Positions 12,922-58,816 of a stretch of DNA of 64,000 nt are shown in pieces. The notes under the pieces were generated by a model. That model was not told the DNA's origin, searched no databases, and saw only the letters and a program-made list of their open reading frames with translations. Within the stretch, counting starts at the first letter, position 1, and every line of letters starts with the position of its first letter. This DNA is from Protoeuglena noctilucae. Its lineage: Eukaryota. Location of the stretch: assembly GCA_958009085.1 (NCBI GenBank), contig OY253679.1, positions 124,001 through 188,000 on the forward strand, read 5' to 3'. The position numbers and the translations under genes are program-made.

Positions 12922-14496
12922 ATGTCTTGCATGTCATGTCATCGGCCGAGCCTTCAGCTACGGCTAGGGAGGCCCGTGGCCCGCCCTCTTGCCTTCGTCC
13001 CTCATCGACATTTGGTTGCTGTGCGAGCCGTGAGGGATGCGGATATCGTCGATCCCCGGGGCCCATATAAGTTCCCCGCATGGGTGACGGATGCAATTTT
13101 GGAGGTACAAGAGCCCGCTGCACTGGAGATGGCGCAGCGCTTGCGCCGCGCCCCAGTGGAGGTGCCGGGAGTTGGCACGATCCTCACCGCGTGCGCCGGC
13201 CCGGAGCCGGAGGCCGCCGTCGGGGGTCCGACGATCGTGATGTTGCACGGCTTCGACAGTAGCTGCCTCGAGTTCCGGCGCTTCTTGCCGCTGCTCGACG
13301 GGAAGGCGCGAGCCTGGGCCGTGGACCTTGTGGTGAGTAATGCGCGGGCGATGAGGACGCGCTGGGTCTGCGGACGACTTGAACGCTTTTCCACGGTAAT
13401 AATCCATCCATCGCGCCTACACTCAACCCTCCTGCGCGCCCCTCTGCCTCCAGGGCTGGGGATTCACAGACAACTTGCACGGGGGAGGCAAGAGCGTTGC
13501 CATCACGCCCGAAACCAAGCGCAGCCATCTCAGGTGCGATGATACGCAGCTATCGACCAGCTGGCTGCTCCCCCTCGCCGCGCATACACGCGCACACCGC
13601 CCTTTCTGTGCGAGGGGCGTGCACCACCCTTCTCGCTCACGCCGTGCTCGTCGCAGGGCATTCCAGGACCAGGTGCTGGGCGAGGAGAAGATGGTCCTCG
13701 TGGGCGCATCGCTGGGCGGTGCGGCGGCCATCGACTTCGCTTTCCACCACCCCGAGCGCGTGGAGCGGGTAAGTGCCACGGCTGTTCCAAGGCCTATTAT
13801 AGCTAACGAGCAGGCTTTGTTCAACCGTCAAGAGAGTAGAGCAGAGCAGAGTAGAGTACAACGTAACCTCTTCGGGAACGCACAGCCGAGCAACACACGC
13901 ACGTCGATCTCAGCTTGTCTCGCCCCCCGCACCCGCAGCTCGTGCTGGTGGACGCCCAGGGCTTCATCGATGGCATTGGTCCCATGGCATCGATGCCCGA
14001 CTGGGCCGCGCGCGCGGGCATCCAGGTCCTCCGGTCCTGGCCCCTGCGCGCCATGGCCAACAACATGTCATACCACAACCCCGCGCTCGCCACATCGGAC
14101 GCCGTCGGTGGGTGCAAGGCGGGCCATGCCAGCACCACCACAGCTGCCCCTGTCGCTCCGCATCTCCCGCGCCCTTCTTCCCCCGCAGCCGTCGGGCGCG
14201 TGCACACCTATGCGGACGGCTGGGCCGACGCCAATCTGTCGTGGATGCGGAGTGGGGGTTACGCGGTGAGCGCCCTCGTCCCCCAGCTGACGATGCCCGT
14301 GATGGTCGTCTGGGGCCGCGAGGACCGGGTCCTGGAGCCCAGCAACGCGGAGAAGTTCAGAGCGGCGCTGCCGGCGGCGCGCGTGGAGGTAGTGGCCGAG
14401 TGCGGCCACGTCCCCCACCTGGAGCAGCCGGGGAGGCTAAGGGACCTCGTGATGGACTTCGCTGCGAACGTAGCGGAAACGACCGTGAACGCGTGA
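12922..14496 (+). CDS. Alpha/beta hydrolase fold protein, probably plastid-targeted
   Basis: IVMLHGFDSSCLEFRR, VDLV|GWGFT, nucleophile elbow VGASLGG, VVWGREDRVL and ECGHVPHLEQP. Arg/Ser-rich N-terminus; five exons. Confidence 0.92.
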
Positions 14497-14689
14497 ACAC
14501 CGTGAACATGCCGACCGCATACTATGCAGCTGCCCGACTGGGGTCGACTGTTGACGCATGAAGCTGCCCGACTGCCAGCACCAGCACCTGCCCGACTGCC
14601 GTACTGTCGGCACCCGTAACCTCTCCAATACGCCTCTGCATCACCCGTGACCACCCCGTCGCCACCCCACCATACCACACCACAGCGCG

Positions 14690-19516: not shown

Positions 19517-19716
19517 NNNNNNNNNNNNNNNNNNNNNNNNNNNNNNNNNNNNNNNNNNNNNNNNNNNNNNNNNNNNNNNNNNNNNNNNNNNNNNNNNNNN
19601 NNNNNNNNNNNNNNNNNNNNNNNNNNNNNNNNNNNNNNNNNNNNNNNNNNNNNNNNNNNNNNNNNNNNNNNNNNNNNNNNNNNNNNNNNNNNNNNNNNNN
19701 NNNNNNNNNNNNNNNN
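19517..19716. other. Assembly gap (200 N)
   Basis: Run of exactly 200 N between G-rich low-complexity flanks. Confidence 0.99.
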
Positions 19717-26400: not shown

Positions 26401-27451
26401 GGTGGGAAAGCGCAAAGCCGCTGCAGCGCTGCGGCTGGCCTAGAAAGGAGAAACGCCATGGGTGACTTTCCACGAAAAAGGACAACGCGACAACTGGGAA
26501 ATGGGAGGCCGAAGAGGCCAGCGCGCCGCGGCCAACTCCGGCACGCTCGCATGCGTGGAATGGCAGCCCTGGTGCAGGGACAAGCGGGGCGCAAGGGCAG
26601 GACTGAGACGAGCGTGGGCCCGAGCGCGTTGCACGCTGTCTACAGCGCCCGGAAGAGCCAACGGGCCAACAACCCCGGGACCGCGCGCTCCTGCGAAAAG
26701 GTCCGCGCGTTCACCAAAGCCGGCGAGGCGAGTAAGTAAAGAGTTGATTATCCCCGCAGGATCCACGGTGGAAACGGGGGTGCGTGCGAGCGATTGGTGC
26801 GCGGGATCGCGGCGTGTCGCTCACCAAGTTTCCTGACGATCCCTCAAGATAAAGCTGTGAACGGGACAATCAGCTCATCATCCTCCCCTCGGCGAGCGGC
26901 CGAGCCAACTCTCAAGGCGAGCCAATTTTCTGACGTCAGAATTCCTGTTGCTTTTTAAGAACAAAGCCGATTTCGACGCGGGCTTATGCGCGGAGTGCGC
27001 GTTCATGCGTCTGTCGAATCGGCAGGGCGCGCGGTCGGACCACCAGCCCCACCTATCACCCGCACTTGGCCCGTGCGCGAGCGCTACCCACATCTTGGCA
27101 TGAAGCGGCCGGCGGCGGCAAAGGCGGGCGCGGCTGAAAAGGTGAATGGCCTCGCCGTTGCTCCGAGACAGCCACGGACGCTCTGCCTGCGTCCGCTCGA
27201 CGCTGTGCGCGTAGCAATTCTTCGGAGCTCTTCCATCGCCGCCCTGCTGATTTTCTCCACCGCCGCGCGAGCGTTGGGGCTTTGCGGTCGCGTATCGATA
27301 TCGCGCCGCGTTGTTGCAAGACCAAGGAGCCCGTAGTGCAACGACCGCACGTCCCTGGGTTTGTGCGGGAGGCATGGCGCCCTGCGAGGGCCCGCCAGGT
27401 CTCCCACGCTTTCTCAGCGACACGCTGCGAACTCAAACGCAGGAGAAGGCG

Positions 27452-30400
27452 ATGCGTCGGAGCATGGAGGCCGGGCCCTCGGACGCGGGGGCGCCGAGCG
27501 AGGAGTGGCAGTGCCCCGCGTGCACGTTCCGCAACGCGTCCGACGCCGCCCGCTGCGACATGTGCGGGACGTCCAGAGGTGTGTCGGATCGACGCGCGCG
27601 CGCGAGGCCGGCGTCGCTCTGCCGCGTGCGAAGGGGGGCGCAGGTCGCATCGCGATTCCCTCGCCGCTGCAGGATCCGGGGCCGGTCCCCGCGTCTCGGA
27701 GGACCGCAGCGACGACGATTACGAAATGACATACGAATCGGACGGTGAGCGGCGATGGCGAGAGGTCGCGCTCGCCCCGCAGGCCCCATAAGAGCCCGGA
27801 ATGCAGCCATCCCCGCCTGCCGCGCCACGCCCCGCCACGCCCCGCCCTCTCTTGTTCCCAGAATCTGCGGAAGCGGGATCGGAGCCGGATGAGGAGCCGG
27901 ACAGCGACAGCGGCAGCGAGAGCGAGAGCGTGGATGCCGGTGGAGGAAAGGCGGTTGCACCCACCCCTGCCTTCCAATGCGCCGCGTGCCACGCCGCCTG
28001 CCCGTCCATGTCCCACGTATTGCGCACGTCGCAATCGCGGCAACTCTGCTGCGTGCCCTGGTGAGACGCCCCACGCTTCTGGCCCGGCCATTCCCCTTCA
28101 CTCTCCGTCTCCCCATCGCAACACCATGCAACAGCAGCTGGTGCCTGCCTTTATACCCACCCTGTTTCCCCATGCTCTCGTTCACTTTCTCTCACCCACT
28201 TACCCGCTCCCTGCCCCACCTGCCCTCACCCCCTCACCACCCCACCACCCCACCACCTCACCCCCTCACCCACCCCCTCCCCCTCCCCAGCCTCGTCCGC
28301 GCCTGCGAGTCCGCTCTTCGCAACACCGTCCGACTGGCAGACGCCCACCCTATCCCCGAAGACCCCACTACGTCAGACGCACCACCAACAACCACCACTC
28401 CCGCCTCTGCCACTAAGAAACCCGGCGCTGCCTTAGTCAAGTCCGCAACACCCAAGTCCGCACCCACCACCCCCGCACACGCAATCAATGCACCCGCACC
28501 CTCGCCCGCATCTGCCAGCAAGGCAGCGGCCGCCGACGGCCCCCCTCCCGGCCCCTTGCGCCCCACAGCGCCCGGCCTGACCCTCGCATCGCTGCAGTCG
28601 CTCTTCTGCAACCCAGCGGACAACACGCCGCTGTCAGCTAACGACGTGCTCGCCATCGGCGGCGCGGGGCTGTTGCTCCATGCCTGTGCGCTCCTGCGCC
28701 CTCTGTCAGAACGTGCTGTGCTGGACCAGTCATCTACCGGGCGCCTGATTGCGAGCGTGTGGCAGCTGCGTGCGCTGTCGGGCGTGGATGCCGAGCCGGA
28801 CGCGGTTGCGTTGCTGGAGGGGGAGTGGGCGCAGGGGCTGCGGGGGCGGGCGGGGGTGGCGGCGGGGGCGGCGAGCGGGGCGGGGGCGGGGGAGGGTGCT
28901 GGGGTGGCGGCGGGGGGTGCGGGTGCGGGTGGTGTGAAGGGGGGTGCGCGTGGTGGGGGTGGGACGGGATATGAGCCTGAGAGGGACAGCAAAGACACGG
29001 CGGTGCTGATGACGATGCGCAAGATGCAGAAGCTGCAGCGGGACACGGGTGAGTGAGTGACTGAGTGATGGCAGTGGGTGAGTGAGTGGCGATGGCGAGA
29101 GGTGGCGGGGTGCAGCGCTCACAGCCAAGTGTCGCTGGCTATCACCCTCGTTGCACAGCTCATATTCTTCTTATTACTCTTATCCAATATAACTCTTCCC
29201 ATATCCTCTCTATTCAGACCGTGTGATGGCGGAGGTGCTGAAGGAGGTCAACGACGCGTTGGACGAGCTCACGGGGCTGTACCCGGAGGCACCCAGGTGC
29301 GATGAGAGTCGTTGCTTGATTTTGATCACATACTACGATCGCATATACTGTGATTGCACACTCGTGTGTGCTTACATTGGCTTGCATTCACTTACCGTTT
29401 GACAATCCCATTCATCCCTTTCCAATCTACCATTTCCAAAACCCACCATTCCCTCTCCTCTCCTCTCCTTTCCCACAGATGGGACTGTTCCGACATCGAC
29501 CTGCCCCTCCCCGCATTGGCCTCGCTGTTATGCGGGGGCGTCCCTCAAGTCCTCTCCTCCCTCCTCTCTTGCTCCATGGCAGCGATTGCTGAGCGCATTT
29601 CTCTCGTCCGGCGCGCTCTGACGCTCCTGCGTGCTTGCGCCAGCCACCGCCCGCTTCTGCCGATCGTGGGGCTGCCCGAGGGGGCGCTGCGGTGTGCGGT
29701 GGGGAGCGCGGTGGCGGCGAGGGGCCTCGCGGATTGGGGTGAGAGGTTTTGGGGGGAATGGGGGGAATGCGAGGGTCGATTGGTGGTGGGTATCATGGGA
29801 TGGGGGGTGGGGGGGTCGGGAGATCGTTTGGGGGATGGTGGATGGATGGTTGGTATCACACACTTTATCCCATACCAACCCAATTGCATGTATCTATTCT
29901 AATCCGATCACAAGTATCAACTCGACCCCGCACCCCTTCCCCTCCACCCCCTCCACCATTCCAGGCCCTTCCGTGATGGCGCGCCTGTCCGAGCGCGGTC
30001 AGCAGGCGGCCATGCTCCTGAAAATGCCGTGCGGGGATTCGGAGGAGGAGATGGGGATGCACGTGTGCGCGGGTGAGATATGAGTGTTTGTTGGGAAGTA
30101 AGATAGAGATAAGAGAGATGGGGATGCACGGTGTGCAGGTGGGTGTGGGTGCATGTGGGCGTGGGTAGCAGTGCGGGTGTGGGTGCATGTGCGGGTGAGT
30201 GTGGATAGCAAGCGCACCTCACCCCCACCCCTCTGCCCATCCAGCTAACACTCAAACTGACCACATATGACCACTGCCCCATTTACTACCCCATCCGCTC
30301 CCCCATTTGACAGTCAAACTGACCACATATTACCACTGCCTCATCCACTCCTTCCCCATCCGCTCCCCCCTCTCCCCACCCTCGCAGCCGACGTCAACAG

Positions 30401-41654: not shown

Positions 41655-44600
41655 TCACTCCGCATCCGCTTCGGGGATGAACAGCTTCTGCCTCCTCACG
41701 ATGTCCTTGCGGCATATGGGGCACTGGTCGATTCTACGGCTGCAACGCCGGCACATTACCGTGTGCCCGCAAGGGACCAGCGCGACCTGAATGGGCTTCT
41801 CGTAGCATATCACGCAATCGTGGCCCACCAGGCCCGCCGGCCGCTCGTCCCGCCGCTGCTGTGATGCGACAACCTTGCCGCCCTCCTCCTCACTGCTACC
41901 CCCCACCCCATTGCCACCCGCATTACCACCACCCGCGTTGCCACCCGCAGCGCGTACCTCGCCGCTCCCCGCGCTGCTCGCCGCCCGCCCCCGCAACCCC
42001 AACTGCCCTCCCTGCCACCCCCGCCAGCCCTGGGGCGGCGACGGCGGTGTGGGAGACCCTGCTGGTGTCGCTAGGGCATTATCCCCATTCGCTTGCACGC
42101 GGGGGGTGGTGGCGGAACCTACTGGGGTCGCTAGGGTGTCACCCGCCGGTGTGGGTGCGGGTGCGGGTGTGGGTGTGGGTGTGGGTGTGGGTGTGGGTGT
42201 GGGTGTGGTGGGGGGCGTGGTGGTGGCAGTGGGTGATGCGAAGGGTCGCGTGGATGACTGCCCAGGAGTGCGGTCGGCGATGGGCGTGGCGCCGGTGGGG
42301 GTGGCCATGCTGGTTGCAGATGGGGTGGCAGGGGTGGCAGCAGAGGGTGTGGCGTTGGCGGTGGGGGTGGCGGGGGAAGGGGGCGGCGACGCGGCTCTTT
42401 GCCGCGTGCGCGGCGCGGCGGTGGGAGTAGCCGGGCCGGGAGTGGCGGGGCCCGGAGAGACATGCGCATTGTCACATATCGCCACCTCCGCCCCCGCACC
42501 CACATCCACCCCCGCCCCTTGCTCAGCAACCGGCGGCATCCCCGCCAGCATGCGCCACGCCTGCGCCAAACCCTCCGCACCCCCTTCCGCCCCCTCATCT
42601 GTCCCATCCACCCCCGCACCCTCTCCCCCCTCCCGCACCCCACTCCCATCCGCCCCCGCCCCCTCCGCAGCCCCCAGCGACCCCTCCCTCACGTTTCTGG
42701 CAAACGTCGCCTCGCTGTCAGGATACGGCGACTGATCTCTGTCATCCCTCTCATCCACTCCCACAACATCCCCATCCACCCCCACCCCCACTGCTACCCC
42801 CACTCCCACCCCCACCCCGCGCCCCCAGTCCCCTTCCGGCGCCCACACGCCCGGCTCCGATGCGGTGTCCGTCCCCGCCAGGTTCGCGACACCGCTGACA
42901 CTGGCGCCCGCACTGGCACCCCATTCCAGCGCGGCGTCAGAGTCGGAGTGTCGGCGCGGGCGGGGCAGCGACGGGGCGGCATCCAAGGCTGCGAAGGGGG
43001 GGGAGGAAGGAGAACAATGGATTGTTCGTGTTGGTGACTGACGCATGTAGTACTACTAGTACAACACAGATGGCGCAGTCGCAGTGCTGCAGTCGATCTC
43101 GACTGTCTTGTCCCCTAGCATCCCCCCCTCTCCACTCCTCATGTCACCCCCCTCATGTCATCCAACCCCATCTCAACCCCCTCACCTCCCTTACCCCCCC
43201 CCATTCCTCATCACACCCCCACCGCTACCACCCCCTCACCTCCCTCGATGCCCCACTCCTCGTCCCCCTCATCCTCCGTGCAAGTGTCCTGCGACCCCAC
43301 AGACCCCATGTCGTCCTCCCCAAAGCGGAGAAGGGGGCGGGTGTCTGCGGGCAAAGAAGGGGGCGGGTGTCTGCGGGCAAAGCAAGATGGAAGGCACGTT
43401 TGTAGCGCAGGCGCAGAGCACAAAGCATAAGGCACCAGTCACATGCATCCTTCGCCCACTGCCACTCCGCGTTACATCTCTCATGTACCACCACAGAACC
43501 CTTCATCCACTCCCTATACCGCACTGCACCCTTCACCCACCCCCACCGCCACCCCCCACTGACCCCCCCAACCCCCCTCCCCCCCCCCCCTCACCCGAAT
43601 CGTCGTCGCTCTCCGCCCCCTCCCACGGCATGCGCTGGAACCCGTCCGTATCCGCATACACCTTTGCCACCAGCGCCCCCAGCACCGACACGCCCGTTGC
43701 CGCCCCCACCACCATCACCACCAGGAGCCACGCCGGCATGGACCAGAAGCCGCCGGAGCCGTCGCGGAGGGCGAACTGGGGGGGGGGGGGGGGGGGGGGG
43801 GAGGCGGGGGATTTGAATAATATTTGGAAAGTGTGTGGGAGAGGGTTAGGGAGGTGGGGCGGGTGCCCTTGCAGCCAGAAACCAAGGACAGACCCACTGA
43901 GAGAGCAACAATGTGCTAATTACCAACCACTCTTCGTGACACTCGCACACACCCAACCAAACAGTCCACAGTCACCGCCCCACTACCCCATCATCACCCA
44001 CCCCTACCCCCCCTCTCACCCGGCAGTCCGCCCCCCCCCACCCCTCGTGGCACTCGCACACGCCGAGCCGGCACGCCCCGTGGCCGTTGCAGTCATCCAG
44101 AGCCTCGCAGCCACCCTCGGCAGGCACCTCGTCCCCCACGCACATCCCGCAACACTCCACCGGGGCAACTGGCACCACGTCGCCGTCGCGGGAACGACGC
44201 GTGCCGCCATAGCCGACCACCGAGAGACCTGGGGGGGTGGGGAGTGGTGGTGGGTGGGGGTGGGTGATGTGGTGGGGCGGTGGGGGTGCGTGGGTGATTG
44301 GCGGTGGGGTGGGGTGCGTGGGTGGGGTGATGAGCGATGACGGGGGGCGAGCGAGCGGTGAGCGCGACAGTGATGAGCAAGGCAGTGATGAGCGTGAGCG
44401 AGGGGTGAGCAGGTGCACATACACACGTTGCGTCACACACACCGCGCAACAAGCTCCCACCTTGTTCCGGGCCCCCGCATCCGACGCCACTGGGCAGGGA
44501 CCTGCACCCGCATCGCGTGATGCGGAAAGCGCGGCCGGAGCGCAGGAGCAGAGCGGGAGAGCAGCATGACAGGGGGGCGTACGGGAAGTATAGGCTGTCC

Positions 44601-45560
44601 GCGACGCTGATGCTCGATCCGTCCGCGAAGCCGGTCGCGAAGTAGCCCACGGTAGAAGACGATTCGCACATCACGGCGTCGTTGCCGCGGCCGCTCGCGG
44701 TGTGGCAGCCGAGAGACACGACAGCGACGGGGGGGTCGTCTTTGAAGTCTGCGCGCGCGGGAGTGGGCCGGCGGGGTCGCAGGAAGGTAAAGGATAATAC
44801 GAAATCGCGACTGCGGGCGGCGGCGCACCGGGGAGGCCGGTCGGGGGGTCCTGCGGGTCGGGCAGGCATGGGCGACAGCAGACCGCGGGGGAGAGCGGCA
44901 CGAGGCCGCCGCCGAGCATCCAGGAGCCGATGTGCTCGAAGTCAGCCACGAAGAAACCGTCCTTCTGCGCGGGCGGGCGGGCGCGGGGGTCGCTGCCGGC
45001 GTCGTGCAGGTTGCCCTAAGAAGAAGACCGGACGAGCCGGGCGCCGGGGGGCACGCCGACCCGCGGGACGCTGTCCGGAGAGCAAAGCATCGACACTCGC
45101 CTCGCAGCTGAGATTCCCGGGCTCTCCCTGCGCCGCCTCGCAGTCACAGAGGGACAGCTGGGCCGTGGCACCCGTGGGGGCCACCTCGCCCGGGCCGCGG
45201 ATCGCCTGGGCATGCGAGTCGCCGAGGAACGTCACACGCGGTGCGAACGCGGCGTCGGCGAGGGCCAGCGCCGGGGCGAACGCCAGGACGACGGCTGCGA
45301 GCGTGGCGACACGGGACGCTGCGGGGGCCGCGGGTGCGGGGGCGTCGTCGAGCCCGGTGGGCGCGGGAGGTGTCTCTATGTCTCGTCGCTTCGCCCCACG
45401 CCGGCAAACGCCCCCGCTAGGCGCTGCTCGCGCGTGTCCGGCCTCCCAGCATTGCGTCGCGCAAGCATGACGAGGGCGCGGGGCCGCCGGGCCGCGCCGT
45501 TGTCAGTGCGCGGCACTCACCACGCCCCGAGCGCCCCGGCCGGCGAGCCGAAGCCTTCAT
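41655..45560 (-). CDS. Type I membrane RING-HC E3 ligase with Cys-rich and EGF-like ectodomain
   Basis: Signal-like [18 protein letters not shown]; Cys-rich segments ([21 protein letters not shown]); [92 protein letters not shown] donor at 45100. Confidence 0.85.
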
Positions 45561-45914
45561 GACTGCAATCGTGCACCAAAGATGTCACGGAGAGCAAGAG
45601 CTAGGCGCGGTGGTGCCGCGTCGATGCAGTTCTACTGTTCTTGACGAGTCCGTGCAGCCGGCCTCGTTTACCAGAGGCCAGGCCTTGCAGAGAGCCAATG
45701 ATTTGAAATGCTAGAGGATGACGAAGAGCTGGGCGCCGCGGCACGGTCAGCCGAGCGATAAACCCTACCCTAAGGCTGCACCATTTTGGTCGTCCGTTCG
45801 CTCGGCAAGATAGCCAGTCCTGCCCATTCTGTGATACTCCTCGTTGAAGTGCTCATAAAAGTAGCGCCCTGGAAAGCTTCACACACGGGCTTCGGGCACA
45901 GCTGAGCAGGAGCC

Positions 45915-47323
45915 ATGGCGAAGGAGGACGAGACGAAGGCCAGCGGCAGGGAGAAGCGGCCTGCTGCATCGGAGACTGCCCCAGAGGATGCCCGTCCGTA
46001 TCGCGTGCAGCTGGAGTCGTATGGATGGCTGGCGAGCGGCAGCACGGGTACGCGATGGCAGCGGAATGAGGACCGCCCGCGTCCGCGCACATCCCTGCGT
46101 CGATTCGGCATCCCGTCCTCCCCCGCAGCCGGGAAGCGAGCGAAAGTGATCGAGGGCGTCGGCGGAGCGACGGCGCTGGGCCTGAAAGCGCAGCTATACA
46201 GCGCGCAGGAGGCAGCGCGGCAGCGTGGCCCCGGCATAGCTGCGCCGAGCGCGCGGGAGATCGCCGCGCTGCGGGACCCGTATGCGCGCAAGAACCGTGG
46301 ACTGGAGGAGCGCATGGCGCGCGACGACGCGGCGCGGGCGGCGGAGGACAAGGAGGCGACGTATCGGTGCGCAGGGATGGTGCGCAATTCATGGCGATGC
46401 GCGTGCGGAATAGGAGATTTGCGCGCTTGACTTTTTCTCCTATGTCACCTCCTCACGCAGATCCAACTTGGAGCGCAAGGCTGCGCTTTACGAGCGCCTG
46501 GCGTCCGGGGCAGCAGCGGACGGGGACGGGGGCGAGGCGTCAGCGCGATTCGAAGTGGACTTCCTGGCCAAGAGTTTTAAGGGTAATGCGGGGGCCGCTG
46601 TGGGGGAATCGAGCTGGCGGGACGCGGGGGGCGACGCGTGGGATGGGGACGGGTGGGGCGGGTCGGGGGTGACGGAGGCGGACGGGCGGCGGATGGTGTC
46701 GCGGGCGGGGGTGCGGGGCCGCGCGGGGCTGGGGGACGCGGCGGAGGGGCGGGCCGCGTGGGAGAGAGACGAAGCGGAGGTGGGGAGGGGCGGGGATGCA
46801 TGGCGGGTGGTGTTGCAGAGCGCACTGTCGCGCAGCGATGCGCAGTGCAGCCTCGCGTGGGCGGGCGATGCCTCGGGGTGTAGCAGCGATCGGCTTGTGT
46901 TGTTTCGAGTGCCTGCAGCGCGCGGTGGCGGCGGAGGCGCGCGCAGAGGAGGAGCGGCAGCGTCGGGTGCAGCTGGTGCGGGAGGTGGGCGCCGAGACGG
47001 CGGAGGGCCGGGCGCGGGCGGCAGAGCTGCGGCGGAGGCAGCAGGACGAGCGCAGCGCCAAGAGGGAGCGGCTCAAGGCCATGCTGATCGAGCGTCGCGT
47101 CGCGGAGGCGAGTGCGATGTGCTGCGACGTGTTTGCATGCGCTTGCGGCGTTGCTCCTCTCTGTCCGGGCCTGGCACAGTCTTGATTTCTTCAAGATATC
47201 AATGATGTCTCTCGAGCGCAGGAGAAGGCCAAATTGGAGCAGGAGTCCCCCGGGGTCATCGTAGAACTGACCAAGCCCGCGCCCGCGCCGGACAGCCGCG
47301 AGGGAGGAGGCGCGGGGGGCTGA
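45915..47323 (+). CDS. CCDC174-like coiled-coil nuclear protein
   Basis: IEGVGGATALGLKAQLY, KNRGLEERMARD, LERKAALYERL, RFEVDFLAK, then a charged coiled coil. GC donor at 47108; TGTAA at about 47378. Confidence 0.7.
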
Positions 47324-47768
47324 GGACTTCACACGTTCGCTGCGGAAGCGATTGCCGACGCGAGTGAGGGCAATGCGTGTAACCCGGCGGCCGGGTCAAA
47401 CTCGCCGGGTCAAACTGCCAGCTAGGCATCTGACACCCGCAGCGACGCAACGCGGCGCTTACGCGGCTCCAGCGCGGACCCGAGAGCCATTGCGAATGAA
47501 TCGCTCGCTCCTGTGGCATCTGCAGAGCTAGATACCCCTCCTTGACTGTCTAACAGGCGTTCACGGGTGACCCGTGGCCAGGCGTTATCGGTGAGAGCGC
47601 GGGGCCGACTCGACCGATATGGCCGCACCAAACCTCGTTATATATGTTGGTTTTACATGTCGCGCTCATCGGGGCCAAAGGTGCGTGCGCGTTTGTGTCC
47701 CCTTGCTGGCGCCACGTCAACGTCGCTCCCCTAGACCCGCCCGCAGGCCCCCGCTGCGCTGCGTCAGG

Positions 47769-50100
47769 ATGCCGCCCCTCATGGCAGCGGACGTCCCGGC
47801 CTTCGTGAAGGCCTGGGAGACGACGTTCAAGCCCGGCCGCATCCGCGTGGGCTGCGCCATCGACGGATCGACCGCGGCCGAGCAGACCTACGAAGCCATG
47901 GCCAGGCGAGGGGCGCAGTGGGCGAGATGGTTGGAATGTCATATAGTGCGACTTCCCAGGCTTTGCAAGGGGTATTGTGACGCTAACAGGAACACTGTAC
48001 TGTGCTGGGGGCGCCATGTTGCATCCGCCCGCACCCTGCACTGTGCGTCACCCAGCATCTATGCTGCAATCTGATGCATGTGTCCTTTTGGGTGGGGCCG
48101 TTTGAGACCGGTTGCCTTGCTACGCCCCCCCTTTTCGGCAGGGCACCTGCCACAGCACGTCCGTAGTACTAGCATGTGGACTAGCATGCCCGTGGCATGT
48201 ACTTGTGAGCCTCTGCAACTTTTGACAGCGTCGAAAGTTTCCAGCTGAGAAGAAACGTGACGAGCAGCACGGCGAAGCAACTTAGTCCGACAAAGGCTGT
48301 CGTTCTCTTTCTGCCGCTCATGTCGGACTAGTTCTCTTCGCCGTGCTGCTCGTCAGAGTTTCTTGTGACCTCGATGCTTTTGACGATGTCAAGGTCGCGA
48401 TGCTCACGTACATTGCATGGTGCATGCCACCGTTGCACTAACAGTGCCTGTCCTGCAATGTGATGCATACGTCCCCACGTTGCAGTAGAAGTACTACTCA
48501 CTCCATCCGATCCCCGCCCCGCCCCTCCCCGTCCCCAGGATGTGCAAGGCTGAGGGGATGGACGTGTTCGTGCTTCACGTGACCACCCCCGAGGCCGCCC
48601 GGGGGGACTACCGGGAGAGCCCCGCGCACTTGATGCGGCAGTACGAGATGCATCGCATGCACTACATGCCGCTGGTGCCGCAGCAATTCATCTCGAGAGA
48701 GAAAGCCCCGGGACGCGGCACGGCCGAGTCGCTTTTACAGCTGGCAGATGAGTGCGCGCTGGACATCCTGTTCATGGGCGCACACGGGCGCAAGGGGTTC
48801 AAGGCGGCGCTGGGCAGCACGGCGGCGGCGGCGATGCGCCAGGCGGCGTGCTCGGTGTGCGTGGTGGAGCATCCGGAGCCCCACGACATGCTGTCCAAGC
48901 GCAAGTGGGTGGTGGCGGTGGACGGCGGGCGCGCGTCCATGATGGGTGAGTTGTCTATCGGTGTGAGTCAGTGTGAGTTAATGTGAGTAACCCGTCATTT
49001 GTGTGCTTGGATAGGCTGGGATTGGGTGAGGGGCGGGGCATGGCAGACGTGTGGTGGGTGCCGTCGTGCATGGGTACACAGGCGTAGCTAGACTACTATG
49101 GAACCCTGAACTCGCCTCATCCTTTCCCCCGCAGCGTTCGCGTCGGTCCTCAAGACGTACGCCCAGCCCGGCGACACCATCTGCGTGTGGATGGAGGACT
49201 TTCGGCCGTCCGCGGAGGCGAGGGGCGACGATGACAATGTACATTATCGCAATACCTTGGCACATTATGGCATGCTGGCTTGGCCTGCATGCACACCACA
49301 TCACATCGCATCGCGTCGCTAACCTCGGCACTCCCTCATCGCGACTCACCGCATCGCACCTCACCGCATCGCATCGCTTACTCCGTCACAGCACTCACAT
49401 CGCCACCCGCCCCGCCCCGTCTCTCTGCAGATATCCTTGGACCCCTTCCGCCGCGCATTGGAGGAGGACGGCCGGTTCAAATTCTAAACCAAGTTCATCC
49501 TCATGCCGGATCAAGGGGCGGGCTTGGAGCATCCAGATTCAGGTGAAGAGGACAGAGGGAAGTGGACGAAAGAGGGGCGACATGCTTGACACAACATCGA
49601 TGCAGCCTCTGCGGTGATAAGGGTGTGTCTGGGGTGTGTGTGTGGGCGGGGAGGGGCAGCATGCAAGGAGATCGCGCTCTCCCTCACCACGCAAACCCCC
49701 CTGTCCCCAACCCTGCACTTCTCGCAGTGCCAGAATCTCTGGTTTCGCGCGCCGAAAGAGCCCAAGCCGACTACCTCGTGATGGGCGTCTCGGGGCCCGT
49801 CAAGCTGGGGAGCGTGTGCGACAGCGTGCTGGCACAGGGGTGAGGTGCATCCTGCAGCACATTGGCACGTGCTATGGTGTGGTACTACGCAGGCGCCCAT
49901 TGTTGTTGTTGCGATGGCGATGAGTGAGTCAATGGACAGAAGGTTGCCTCTCAACGCATCATACTGAAGCCCTATTTGTTCTGCCCTATCACCGCAGTTG
50001 CCACGTGCCCGTGTTGATGTACAAGGATGACGGGGAGGCCAGCAGCAAGCGGAACTTGGAGAGCGCCATTGGCAGGTCGCCCACCATCAAGGGGATGTGA
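47769..50100 (+). CDS. Tandem universal stress protein (two USP domains) with an in-frame TAA
   Basis: IRVGCAIDGS, VLHV, DILFMGAHGRKG...LGSTAAAAMRQAACSVCVV; second domain WVVAVDG...DYLVMGVSGPVKLGSVCDSVLAQGCHVPVLMY. Exon 49431-49542 contains TAA at 49485-49487. GC donors at 47906 and 49218. Confidence 0.85.
48184..48427 (+). ncRNA. Intronic long imperfect hairpin, candidate pre-miRNA/hpRNA
   Basis: 48258-48277 (TGACGAGCAGCACGGCGAAG) is the exact reverse complement of 48336-48355. Pairing extends inward (tagtccgaca/tgtcggacta) and outward with bulges and G:U pairs to gcatgc at 48184 and 48427. Confidence 0.62.
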
Positions 50101-50502
50101 AGCTGGGTGTGATGGGATGTGAAGAGGGGTGCTCGTGGCAAGGTGACATGCCAGGTGTCATGGACAGGTCGAACGAACCAAGAGAACAAAAAGCGAGACG
50201 GGGTAGTAGAAAGCGAGACTACAGGATGCGAAGATTGGCGCTGCGTTTGACTCAGTTGCGCATAGCGAGTAGCTGCCCTAGAGCCGTCCGTGTTCACGTG
50301 GCTGTCTGTTCGTCCGTTCAACGCTCTGCGAACTGACACGCTGCTCAGTGTACTAGAAGTGAAGTTAAAGAGGTAGTGTAACTTCTATACATCACTCAAA
50401 CCTGATGCCTGCCACACCGCTACGTCACTCCGTCCCCCCCAATGTCGGGGACTCCACCAGTCACTGTCGAACTCTCACTCCACAACCAGAGCGCTCAAAC
50501 CC

Positions 50503-51928
50503 TTACTCCGCAGCCCTCACGCCCCCCCGCGCCTGCGCCAAAGCCGTCTCCGCTTGCACCGCCCTCACAGCCGGCATCGCGCGCGCATACGCCTTGCGCA
50601 TCATGCCGTGGAAGTCCCCCAGACTCCACAGATTCGCTTCACGAAAGGTCACGCGCCGCGACCTGACCACGTGAACGGCGCCGTCGCCCGGGGCCACCGA
50701 CACCGCGTCCCGGCCGCTGAAGGGCGTGCTCCTGCGGGAACGCAAGAGTTGTTATTGCGTGGTTGACGTGACTATCACCACCTAGTAACAGTCGGCAGAA
50801 TCAGCATGTGATGCAACCTTTCACACCATATTCACCTGGATATGACGTGCACGATGGCGGGCGGCGCGGCCCCTCCCAGCTGCGCGCGCCGCCGCTGCCG
50901 GAAAGGCTCGACGCAAACTCGATCAACGAGCCCGCCGTCGACGAAAGGGGAATCGGGAGAGCCGGGGATCTCCACAGCTGCGGGCAGGCGACGCAAGGGC
51001 ACATGGTAAAAGTGACCCGATTGCGGCGACTTCGCGATGTATAAGGTTCGGGTCGACATCGCGATGAATTTATCATGTATATCGGATTCGTCCTGTGCCC
51101 CTCTCCGCTCCCCTCGCACCTCGGAAGACGAGCGGGACGCACGCCGAGGCCGCCACGGCTTCCGGCAACGGACCGGAGTCGAGGAGGACGTGGCGGCCCC
51201 GCGCGTCGACGGCTCCGACGACAAAATCACGGTCCAGCTCCTCGAACGTGGCGGGGAGCAAATCCCTGCGAGGCAGGCGGCGCGCGGGGCCAGGTTTCGC
51301 GCGCTGCAAGACCGAGCTGCCGCTGCGTGGGCGCGAACGGCCCCGCACCGCAGCCGATTGACGACTCCGTCCAATACGAAGAATCCCTCCCAGGTGCGCG
51401 CGTTCCTCCGCAGCAGGCGAATCGGCGGGACGCGGGAGAGCTCGCGCGCCACCGCCGTGGGCGAATACCCCGCGGCGTACAGCGAACCCGCGAGTGCGCC
51501 GCTCGAGGTCCCCATCACGGCGCTGACTCGAAGCCCCGCGTCCTCGATGGCCTGGATGACGCCCGAGTGCAGCGCGAAGCCGAGCCACCCGCTGGACAAG
51601 ACCAGGTCGACGCTCCCTGGACCCGGGCCCGGCCTGCGATTGGAGAGCGAAGGTGCGGCGGTGTGGAGCACGTCCCGACGCGCGCCCTCGTCGGCTCGTA
51701 AGTGAGCTGCGCGCCCTAGCAATCCGTGGCCTCGTCGACGGGCGCGGCCCGCGGCGCTCACCTCTCCACCGACTCATCCTCAGACAGCTCCACAGTCTGC
51801 GTGCCCGCCAGCTGACCCAGCTGTCCCGCCGGCGACCCGTACTGCCGTGTCCGGCCCAGAAGCCCTCGCGCGTGCGAGGTTCGCAGCGACGCGAGGGCTC
51901 CACTCGCGCCGATTCTCGGCACCGGCAT
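50503..51928 (-). CDS. Patatin-like phospholipase
   Basis: VDLVLSSGWLGFALHSG (oxyanion block), MGTSSGAL (GxSxG), EAVAASACVP, FVDGG (catalytic Asp). Five exons; first stop is TAA. Confidence 0.9.
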
Positions 51929-52672
51929 CTATCTACCCACACCCGTTGCCCTCGGCCGAAATCGCCGCGCCGAAAGGCGCCGTGCGCGGTGTGCCTCAGG
52001 CCGCGAAAGTGGTGGCTTGCCTATCCCAGCCTGCAAGAGTGGCCCGCGCAACCCCGAGTCGCCTGCGTTGTGGGCACCAGTTTCTGCAACACCACAGCAG
52101 CGGCAAGGTACCGAAACCCAAGTCGGCCCTGACGCCAGTCGGACGCGCCCTGCCAGGAGAGCTCTTCCCGGCAAGCCCGACCCAGCCAGTGACATTGCTA
52201 CGCTCCCGTGTCTCGTTCGTGGCGTGTCGGGGTGCAGGGCCGGCGTGGCAAGGCGATCGGGGGGAATCCCAGCGCAGGGAGCGACCGGCAGGCGAGTGCG
52301 GCTTCCCCGGTCGCGGACGAGGAACGTGGGGCGTCATGAGACCGCGCGGCGGTCCTCTGGGTTCGCCTCCTCGCTCGCATCCGCCGAGCTAGGCGAAGGC
52401 GATGTGCGCGACGCTTTCGTTGCCTCACACGGCCCTCGCCGGCGTTCTCCTCCGGCGATGTCGTGACAATGCCTTGGAGACGTGCAGAGGGAGGCGTTCG
52501 CGCCCGGCCGGGGTCCCCCGGACTCGTGGCATCCCGGCAGACGCTGCCCGGGCCCTCATCGTGAGACGCGTGCGAGTCAACCACGCCGATCGGCGCCAGA
52601 CTCTTCCTCGTCCACCTCGCGTTCCGCAGGGCGACTTTCTGGAGTCTGGGAGCGGGAGGGGAGCGCGCAGAG

Positions 52673-53372
52673 ATGGCCGCCAGGCTCGGGCTGTTCCGCG
52701 GCCTCAAGCAGCGGATTTTTGACTCGTACACCAAGAGCCTGGACAAGAACTTGCGGGCGCTGGGTCTGGTGAGCGGCGGCGCGCCCGGCGTGAGCGGGAG
52801 GAGAGGGTGGGACCGTCAGCGAGCGCGTCCGAGCGCGTCCCCGCGCTCCCGCACCCGCAGCGGTACGACGATCTGCTGGACCCGCTTCAGGACCCCGACG
52901 TGGAGGTCGCGCTGCGGCGCATCCCGGCCGCGGAGGTCGAGGGCCGCAACGCGCGCCTCCGCCGGGCGCTCAACCTCTCGATGAAGAAGGAGGAGCTGCC
53001 GGAGGACATGCAGGTGGGTCTTGCGAGATGGGCGCTCGCGAGAGATTAGGGATCGTGGTCGCAGGTGACCAGCAGAGTGCCGACCAGCTCGGGATCCACT
53101 GCGCCCCGCCTTTTCTCCCGTCCTGCAGGCCATGCAGACGCCCTTCATGCACTACCTGCTTCCTGAGCTGAAGAAAGTGCGGATGGAGAACCGGGAGGCC
53201 AAGGTGAGAGGGCGATTGCTCGCGTGTGGGTCGCAAGGGGCCTGCGTGTGCACTGATTCAACCCCTAGCGCCGCACAGTTCGTTCTGAGTTCACTGTTCG
53301 ATACCAGTTATCCCTGTCGTTCGCTCGCAGGCCCTCAACACCCCCCGTGCTTATCGCCGGAGCCTCCCGTGA
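52673..53372 (+). CDS. QCR7: Cytochrome bc1 complex subunit 7 (14 kDa)
   Basis: LRALGL|RYDDLLDPLQDPDVEVALRRIPAAEVEGRNARLRRALNLSMKKEELPEDMQ|AMQTPFMHYL...ENREAK|ALNTPRAYRRSLP*. Confidence 0.93.
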
Positions 53373-53758
53373 CGCGCCCCTGCGTGCTGGGCTGCCCGGA
53401 TGGCTCTAGGCGGATAGGCCGGCTGCCCGCGGTCCACTTCCCCTCCATCAAGACTTGGGAGTCTAGACCAGGGCTCCGCAGCGTTTGAAGGACTGGCACT
53501 CGACAGAAACCTTGTCCAGCGGCCGGTAGCAGCGTTATCGACCCGGTCGACGCCCTCCTGGGAGCAGAGCGTGCCGCATTTGCATCTTCAGATCGTCACG
53601 CACAGCTTCCTCGGCCGAAACTGCCATAATGTGCTTGTGAATCGCTTTTCCGACCCACGCAAGCGTGCTTGGCGCCCGTATCCGATCGCGCGAGATCTGA
53701 TTTCGGGCTGAGGGCGCACCCGTCGCGGGTCTAGGGCCTGTCCGGGCCGGGGCTCGGG

Positions 53759-58816
<5,058 letters not shown>

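Follow-up and report, generated by a model that had tools for sequence, protein, structure and literature searches.

Members of the USP family are expected to be encoded in an uninterrupted reading frame. The gene considered here, a tandem-USP gene with two USP domains and six coding exons on the + strand at 47.7-50.1 kb of the window (the whole stretch of 64,000 nucleotides that was analysed), departs from this expectation by a single TAA at codon 228 of 317. How does a gene whose transcript is correctly spliced come to carry a stop inside its second domain, and is this codon read as a stop at all? The first-pass annotation of this DNA had placed a TAA at 49485-49487, within exon 49431-49542 of a tandem USP gene, and the codon is indeed present there in the DNA as well as in spliced RNA contigs. 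It had also called this TAA the second in-frame stop of the gene. This count does not hold, as the frame supported by RNA contains exactly one internal stop.

The coding sequence spliced from the RNA-supported exons runs from the ATG at 47769-47771 to the ancestral stop TGA at 50098-50100 and comprises 317 codons with one internal stop, codon 228. Upstream of it, record 1 of the RNA run X10 carries 362 letters that precede position 47746 and end loose; the last 30 of them match window positions 47560-47589 and thereby imply a 5'UTR intron of 156 nt (47591-47746, GT..AG). Exon 1 (47747-47905) holds the start codon, and an in-frame TGA lies upstream of it in the preceding exon. Intron 1 (47906-48538, 633 nt) is of the GC..AG type and is seen as an RNA joint 47901>48535 with five ambiguous letters. 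Exon 2 (48539-48945), also contained in X10 record 1, encodes most of USP domain 1 together with strand beta1 of domain 2. It is followed by intron 2 (48946-49134, GT..AG, 189 nt), which is deduced from an RNA contig whose loose end, at 49134, is identical to the closing letters of exon 2, giving the joint 48945/49135. Exon 3 (49135-49217) encodes helix 1 and strand 2 of domain 2 and ends in phase 0. Intron 3 (49218-49430, 213 nt) is again GC..AG, with an RNA joint 49215>49429 and two ambiguous letters. The stop-bearing exon 4 (49431-49542, 112 nt) encodes helix 2 and strand 3 of domain 2 and is bordered by the acceptor TCTCTCTGCAG at 49430/49431 and the donor CAG/GTGAAG at 49542/49543. Its TAA is followed by an A and lies 55 nt before the junction of exons 4 and 5, and an in-frame ATG (49503-49505) is found five codons past it. 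Introns 4 (49543-49727, 185 nt) and 5 (49840-49997, 158 nt) are both GT..AG and both supported by RNA contigs of X8 and X10. Between them lies exon 5 (49728-49839), which supplies domain 2 with helix 3, strand 4 and its glycine-rich loop, and the coding part of exon 6 (49998-50100) completes the frame. The RNA contigs extend past the coding end to at least 50315 in X10 and at least 50400 in X8.

After the ambiguous letters have been shifted, the joints in the RNA contigs fall at 47905/48539 and 49217/49431 (GC..AG) and at 49542/49728 and 49839/49998 (GT..AG). The limits, acceptor and donor that had been proposed for exon 4 are thus borne out by the RNA contigs, as are the two junctions that flank it, 49217/49431 and 49542/49728, and the other three. 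The claim that this exon can be read in one phase only holds as well.

Several features of the introns deserve mention in their own right. GC donors are used in two of the six introns (47906-48538 and 49218-49430), both confirmed by RNA contigs and both reading AG/GCGAGG at the exon border (AG/GCGAGGGG). Together with a GC content of about 65% and the short tandem repeats of intron 3, these donors would be in keeping with a haptophyte of the Emiliania/Gephyrocapsa type: for Emiliania huxleyi, PMC4028052 gives 56% GC-AG junctions at 65% GC and describes intron retention as frequent. GC..AG introns must be permitted in gene models for this genome, and finders restricted to GT-AG would mis-model the gene. 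Intron 1, which is unusually long at 633 nt, contains an inverted repeat (48258-48292 and 48321-48355) with arms of 35 nt that are 89% complementary and 28 nt apart; by eye the pairing goes further on both sides, and the repeat may be a small hairpin-forming mobile element. Short tandem repeats with periods of 5, 10 and 15 (CACCG and CATCGCAACTCACCG) occupy 49337-49377 of intron 3, just upstream of the stop exon. Contigs of the RNA run X8 (47610-49315) span introns 1, 2 and 3 while introns 4 and 5 appear spliced; their cover of introns 1-3 could reflect intron retention, pre-mRNA or other unspliced RNA, or carry-over of DNA. Finally, X10 implies a 5' exon that extends into the 3'-terminal part of the preceding + strand gene, whose stop TGA lies near 47320. 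The USP transcript and that of the upstream gene may overlap, or the X10 contig may fuse the two.

A search of public runs returned 12 that hold this stretch or part of it, from three studies, and four of them were compared with the window over 47600-50400: X2 from organism A (its kind unrecorded), the DNA of metagenome run X7, and the metatranscriptomes X8 and X10. No differing letter was found in any of the four (two DNA or undetermined, two RNA), the TAA included. Record 2 of X10, in which exons 3, 4, 5 and 6 are joined, covers 49429-49539, and record 17 of X8 covers 49340-49539; both contain the TAA and not one letter that differs from the window. Equally free of differing letters are the DNA contigs of X2, which cover the whole stretch, and X7 record 10 (49110-49791). 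As all four runs are represented by assembled contigs, minor alleles, among which there may be a sense allele in the same cells, and rare isoforms are invisible in them, and because samples and year are common to the metagenome and metatranscriptome studies, the runs amount to about two independent sources (one 2016 campaign, and organism A) and the breadth of sampling is small. Missing cover in the RNA contigs, for instance of X10 over the introns, carries no evidential weight. The first-pass annotation had named two ways in which its claim could fall, namely transcripts that skip the exon or use other splice sites, and reads that show a sense codon; neither was found, as the RNA contigs keep exon 4 and show TAA. 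The agreement of RNA and DNA at this codon also means that editing is absent at the level of the consensus. That the true codon is a sense codon, hidden by an artefact of assembly or base calling, has in our estimation a negligible probability: nothing was found in favour of it, though the evidence consists of contigs and X2 was flagged as a possible source of the window's own DNA, and against it stand identical letters in all four runs, including RNA contigs of two samples and a DNA contig of a third. We regard it as confirmed that the TAA is a genuine in-frame stop which is kept in correctly spliced mRNA.

What, then, did the codon replace? Exon 2 matches Pfam PF00582 with 41.1 bits (cut-off 24, E=3.4e-10), and domain 1 is complete. 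Taken singly, none of exons 4, 5 and 6, each of which encodes fewer than 40 residues, gives a Pfam match, yet combined they align colinearly with the orthologue P0009 and with the metagenome locus L001. The presence of a second USP domain is further seen from the AlphaFold model of P0009 (18-sequence alignment, mean pLDDT 89.3), which shows another alpha/beta domain of five strands and resembles tandem USPs of solved structure. Its top matches in the PDB are Rv2623 of Mycobacterium tuberculosis, UspE of E. coli and TTHA0350 of Thermus thermophilus (E 5.8e-08 to 1e-06, TM 0.55-0.65 on the query). These proteins likewise contain two PF00582 domains per chain; different from them, the window gene is eukaryotic, is interrupted by introns and has its frame broken inside domain 2. 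It also has a short glycine-rich loop in domain 2 when compared with the ATP-binding motif of the USP family, which we take to be G-2x-G-9x-G-[ST]: its translation reads G-x2-G-x8-G-S in domain 1 and G-x2-G-x4-G-S in domain 2, the domain 2 loops of the orthologues being similarly short.

An exhaustive profile-free search supplied five orthologues for alignment, P0009, P0025, P0012 (Pedinophyceae sp. according to the label of its source), P0005 and P0010. Locus L001 encodes the closest of them, P0009, and is intronless over the aligned part; its tblastn alignment with the window gene extends over 197 residues with 51% identity and is colinear over every junction between exons 2 and 6. Because an intronless locus aligns colinearly across all of these junctions, the frame that contains the TAA is ancestral. 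At the position of the TAA, the alignment shows Glu (P0009, with the codon GAG in L001), Ser (P0025), Asp (P0012) and Asp (P0005), and a gap in P0010. A polar residue had been expected at this position from the sequence of the window, and four of the five orthologues agree with that expectation. The proposed placement of the stop in strand beta3 agrees with the model as well, in which E130 of P0009 belongs to the third strand of domain 2 (residues 128-135). The alignment together with the coding sequence thus puts the disabling mutation at an ancestrally coding position.

Relatives beyond this set are few. Word-indexed protein searches with exon 2 and with P0009 found no full-length close homologue: exon 2 returned nothing at the lengths classed as longer and, among near lengths, its own ORF and P0002 (71%), and P0009 retrieved itself only. 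The fragments P0002 and P0006, at 66-71% identity, are present in the databases and may be paralogues or come from a different species. A scan of metagenomes gave two loci, L001 and L002, of a single orthologue type, and the window contains no USP paralogue. In a tblastx comparison of 43001-54000 with L001 and L002, the USP gene was the only convincing match among the L001 rows, and synteny is thus not apparent.

The part of the gene that follows the stop shows no decay. The downstream exons had been described as intact, and so they are: the frame stays open for 89 codons without further stops, frameshifts or lost conserved residues, and its splice sites are all used. An open frame taken alone is weak evidence, since 839 of 5000 shuffles of this GC-rich sequence stay open too. 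Then again, conservation does not fall off behind the stop. Of the residues aligned with P0009, 37/70 are identical behind the stop as compared to 33/62 in the part of domain 2 that precedes it, and in columns where at least four of the five orthologues agree the gene keeps 18 of 18 behind the stop and 35 of 38 ahead of it. A relaxation of constraint is therefore not seen behind the lesion, with no further lesions and all 18 columns retained. Only a recent event or continued selection would account for such an undecayed downstream part, and we take the nonsense mutation to be probably recent. The explanation that we favour, with a probability of roughly 0.8, is that the TAA is an ordinary, evolutionarily young loss-of-function nonsense mutation at a former Glu-type codon and is read as a stop.

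But could the codon be decoded instead? Were TAA a sense codon in this organism, it would be found in frame at sense positions of many conserved genes, and this was not observed: all TAA-bearing open segments with a length of 100 codons or more were scanned against Pfam with TAA as X, and in none of the 92 does a match span a TAA. Two of these segments do match, with the TAA outside both matches; they are parts of an FtsH gene, matched by AAA and Peptidase_M41, in which the TAAs presumably sit in introns. Segments containing TAG and TGA were enumerated (109 and 286), the test of reassignment covering TAA only. Another possibility is readthrough of a programmed or conditional kind, in which some of the ribosomes would decode the UAA by means of a tRNA near-cognate to it (Gln, Lys, Glu or Tyr) and the mRNA would yield a 227-residue form next to the full tandem USP of 317 residues. 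The 89 open codons and the 18 of 18 family-conserved columns behind the stop fit continued translation also, for which reason readthrough retains a small probability, and two samples contain the spliced mRNA. An undecayed downstream part is equally expected after a recent mutation, however, and the remaining evidence points away from readthrough. The stop occurs in none of the five aligned orthologues, four of which have sense codons there. Its context is UAA A-CC-AAG, the next codons being ACC AAG, and to our knowledge UAA-A does not figure among the leaky contexts. RNA structure in the 60, 90 and 120 nt of spliced mRNA downstream is no better than in dinucleotide shuffles (z = 0.1, 0.5 and 0.05), and TAA is crossed by none of the other Pfam domains of the window. 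The window contains neither tRNA genes nor Rfam matches, and literature searches for readthrough in haptophytes showed nothing relevant in titles and abstract openings. Readthrough genes, among them viral leaky stops and cellular genes of animals, fungi and plants, resemble the present gene in that an in-frame stop is followed by a long open and conserved frame. Their stop, though, is usually conserved and commonly lies in a leaky context, often as UGA or UAG and sometimes with structure after it, whereas the present stop is UAA-A, is matched by sense codons in the relatives and is followed by no conspicuous structure. Nothing, in sum, positively supports a special decoding of the TAA, and we judge readthrough to be unlikely. 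A shade less likely yet is its most specific form, that ribosomes pass the UAA at an appreciable rate, perhaps one that depends on stress, so that one mRNA gives both a single-domain-like USP of 227 residues and the full tandem USP. If true, this would be the first regulated UAA readthrough in this algal group, and should the downstream half be translated, the gene would serve as a natural test of readthrough, or of how far premature stops are tolerated, in the lineage.

The transcript might also escape the stop by splicing, or the protein be made in two pieces. The sequence permits the former, as an AG at 49492-49493, two codons past the TAA, could serve a minor isoform as acceptor of intron 3; its use would delete 49431-49493, that is, 63 nt or 21 codons including the TAA, and keep the frame, and a rare isoform of this kind would be invisible in contigs. 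We nevertheless hold it to be very improbable, because both RNA contigs that reach exon 4 keep 49431-49493, because the AG is not preceded by a pyrimidine tract, and because the isoform would lose a segment, helix 2 of domain 2, that is conserved between the gene and P0009. Two translated pieces would require reinitiation at the in-frame ATG 49503-49505, after which the halves might reassemble, and the intact downstream part would be in keeping with this. The Met at 49503 is found in three of the five orthologues (P0009, P0025 and P0012), though, and is thus ancestral rather than a new start; moreover, reinitiation after a reading frame of 227 codons is inefficient in eukaryotes. The chances of a two-piece protein are accordingly, in our opinion, slighter even than those of the isoform.

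We therefore return to the young nonsense mutation and to what it would mean for the protein. If the TAA is read as a stop under the standard code in this organism, translation from the ATG at 47769 ends after 227 residues, and we think that this termination probably takes place. The resulting product would keep domain 1 and, of domain 2, strand 1, helix 1, strand 2 and helix 2; it would be devoid of strands 3, 4 and 5, of helix 3 and of the glycine-rich loop. Given that the gene is still transcribed and correctly spliced, it would encode a truncated stress protein that consists in effect of domain 1 only, or else it would be a transcribed young pseudogene. Domain 1 could still act alone. Exon junctions downstream of a stop mark candidates for nonsense-mediated decay, and with junctions 55 and 167 nt past the TAA the mRNA has the features of a target of this pathway. 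As the mRNA was assembled from two metatranscriptomes, its decay, if any, is incomplete, contig depth being unable to rank expression.

Young unitary pseudogenes and nonsense alleles offer a close parallel. They resemble the window gene in having one disabling stop where the ancestor had a sense codon, with exon junctions following it, and the likeness extends to a gene that is transcribed, spliced and without further lesions. Different from such pseudogenes, the window gene has a complete domain 1, and its loss of function is putative. The case is one of a premature stop in an expressed and correctly spliced gene of a marine alga, and it carries a warning for annotation: gene callers will truncate the gene or invent splice sites, whereas the model supported by RNA contains the stop.

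The remainder of the window is eukaryotic DNA with a GC content of about 65%, ranging over 52-70% in 2-kb steps, and a run of 200 N at 19517-19716 indicates a scaffolded assembly with a gap. Pfam matches on long ORFs identify, in order, an eIF5/eIF2B domain (1395-2651), an alpha/beta hydrolase (13403-14558), a RanBP zinc finger (27251-27745), a RING finger (41658-43052, - strand) and a teneurin-like EGF domain (43975-44670, - strand) ahead of the USP gene, and behind it a patatin-like phospholipase (50835-51773, - strand), which is convergent with the USP gene, and the multi-exon FtsH protease (56394-58813). An Atlas look-up with an eIF5 piece gave no usable match. Between 32185 and 33503, long low-complexity tracts yield runs of Cys-Gly (+ strand) and His-Pro (- strand) in read-through translations, which indicates a GC-rich microsatellite.
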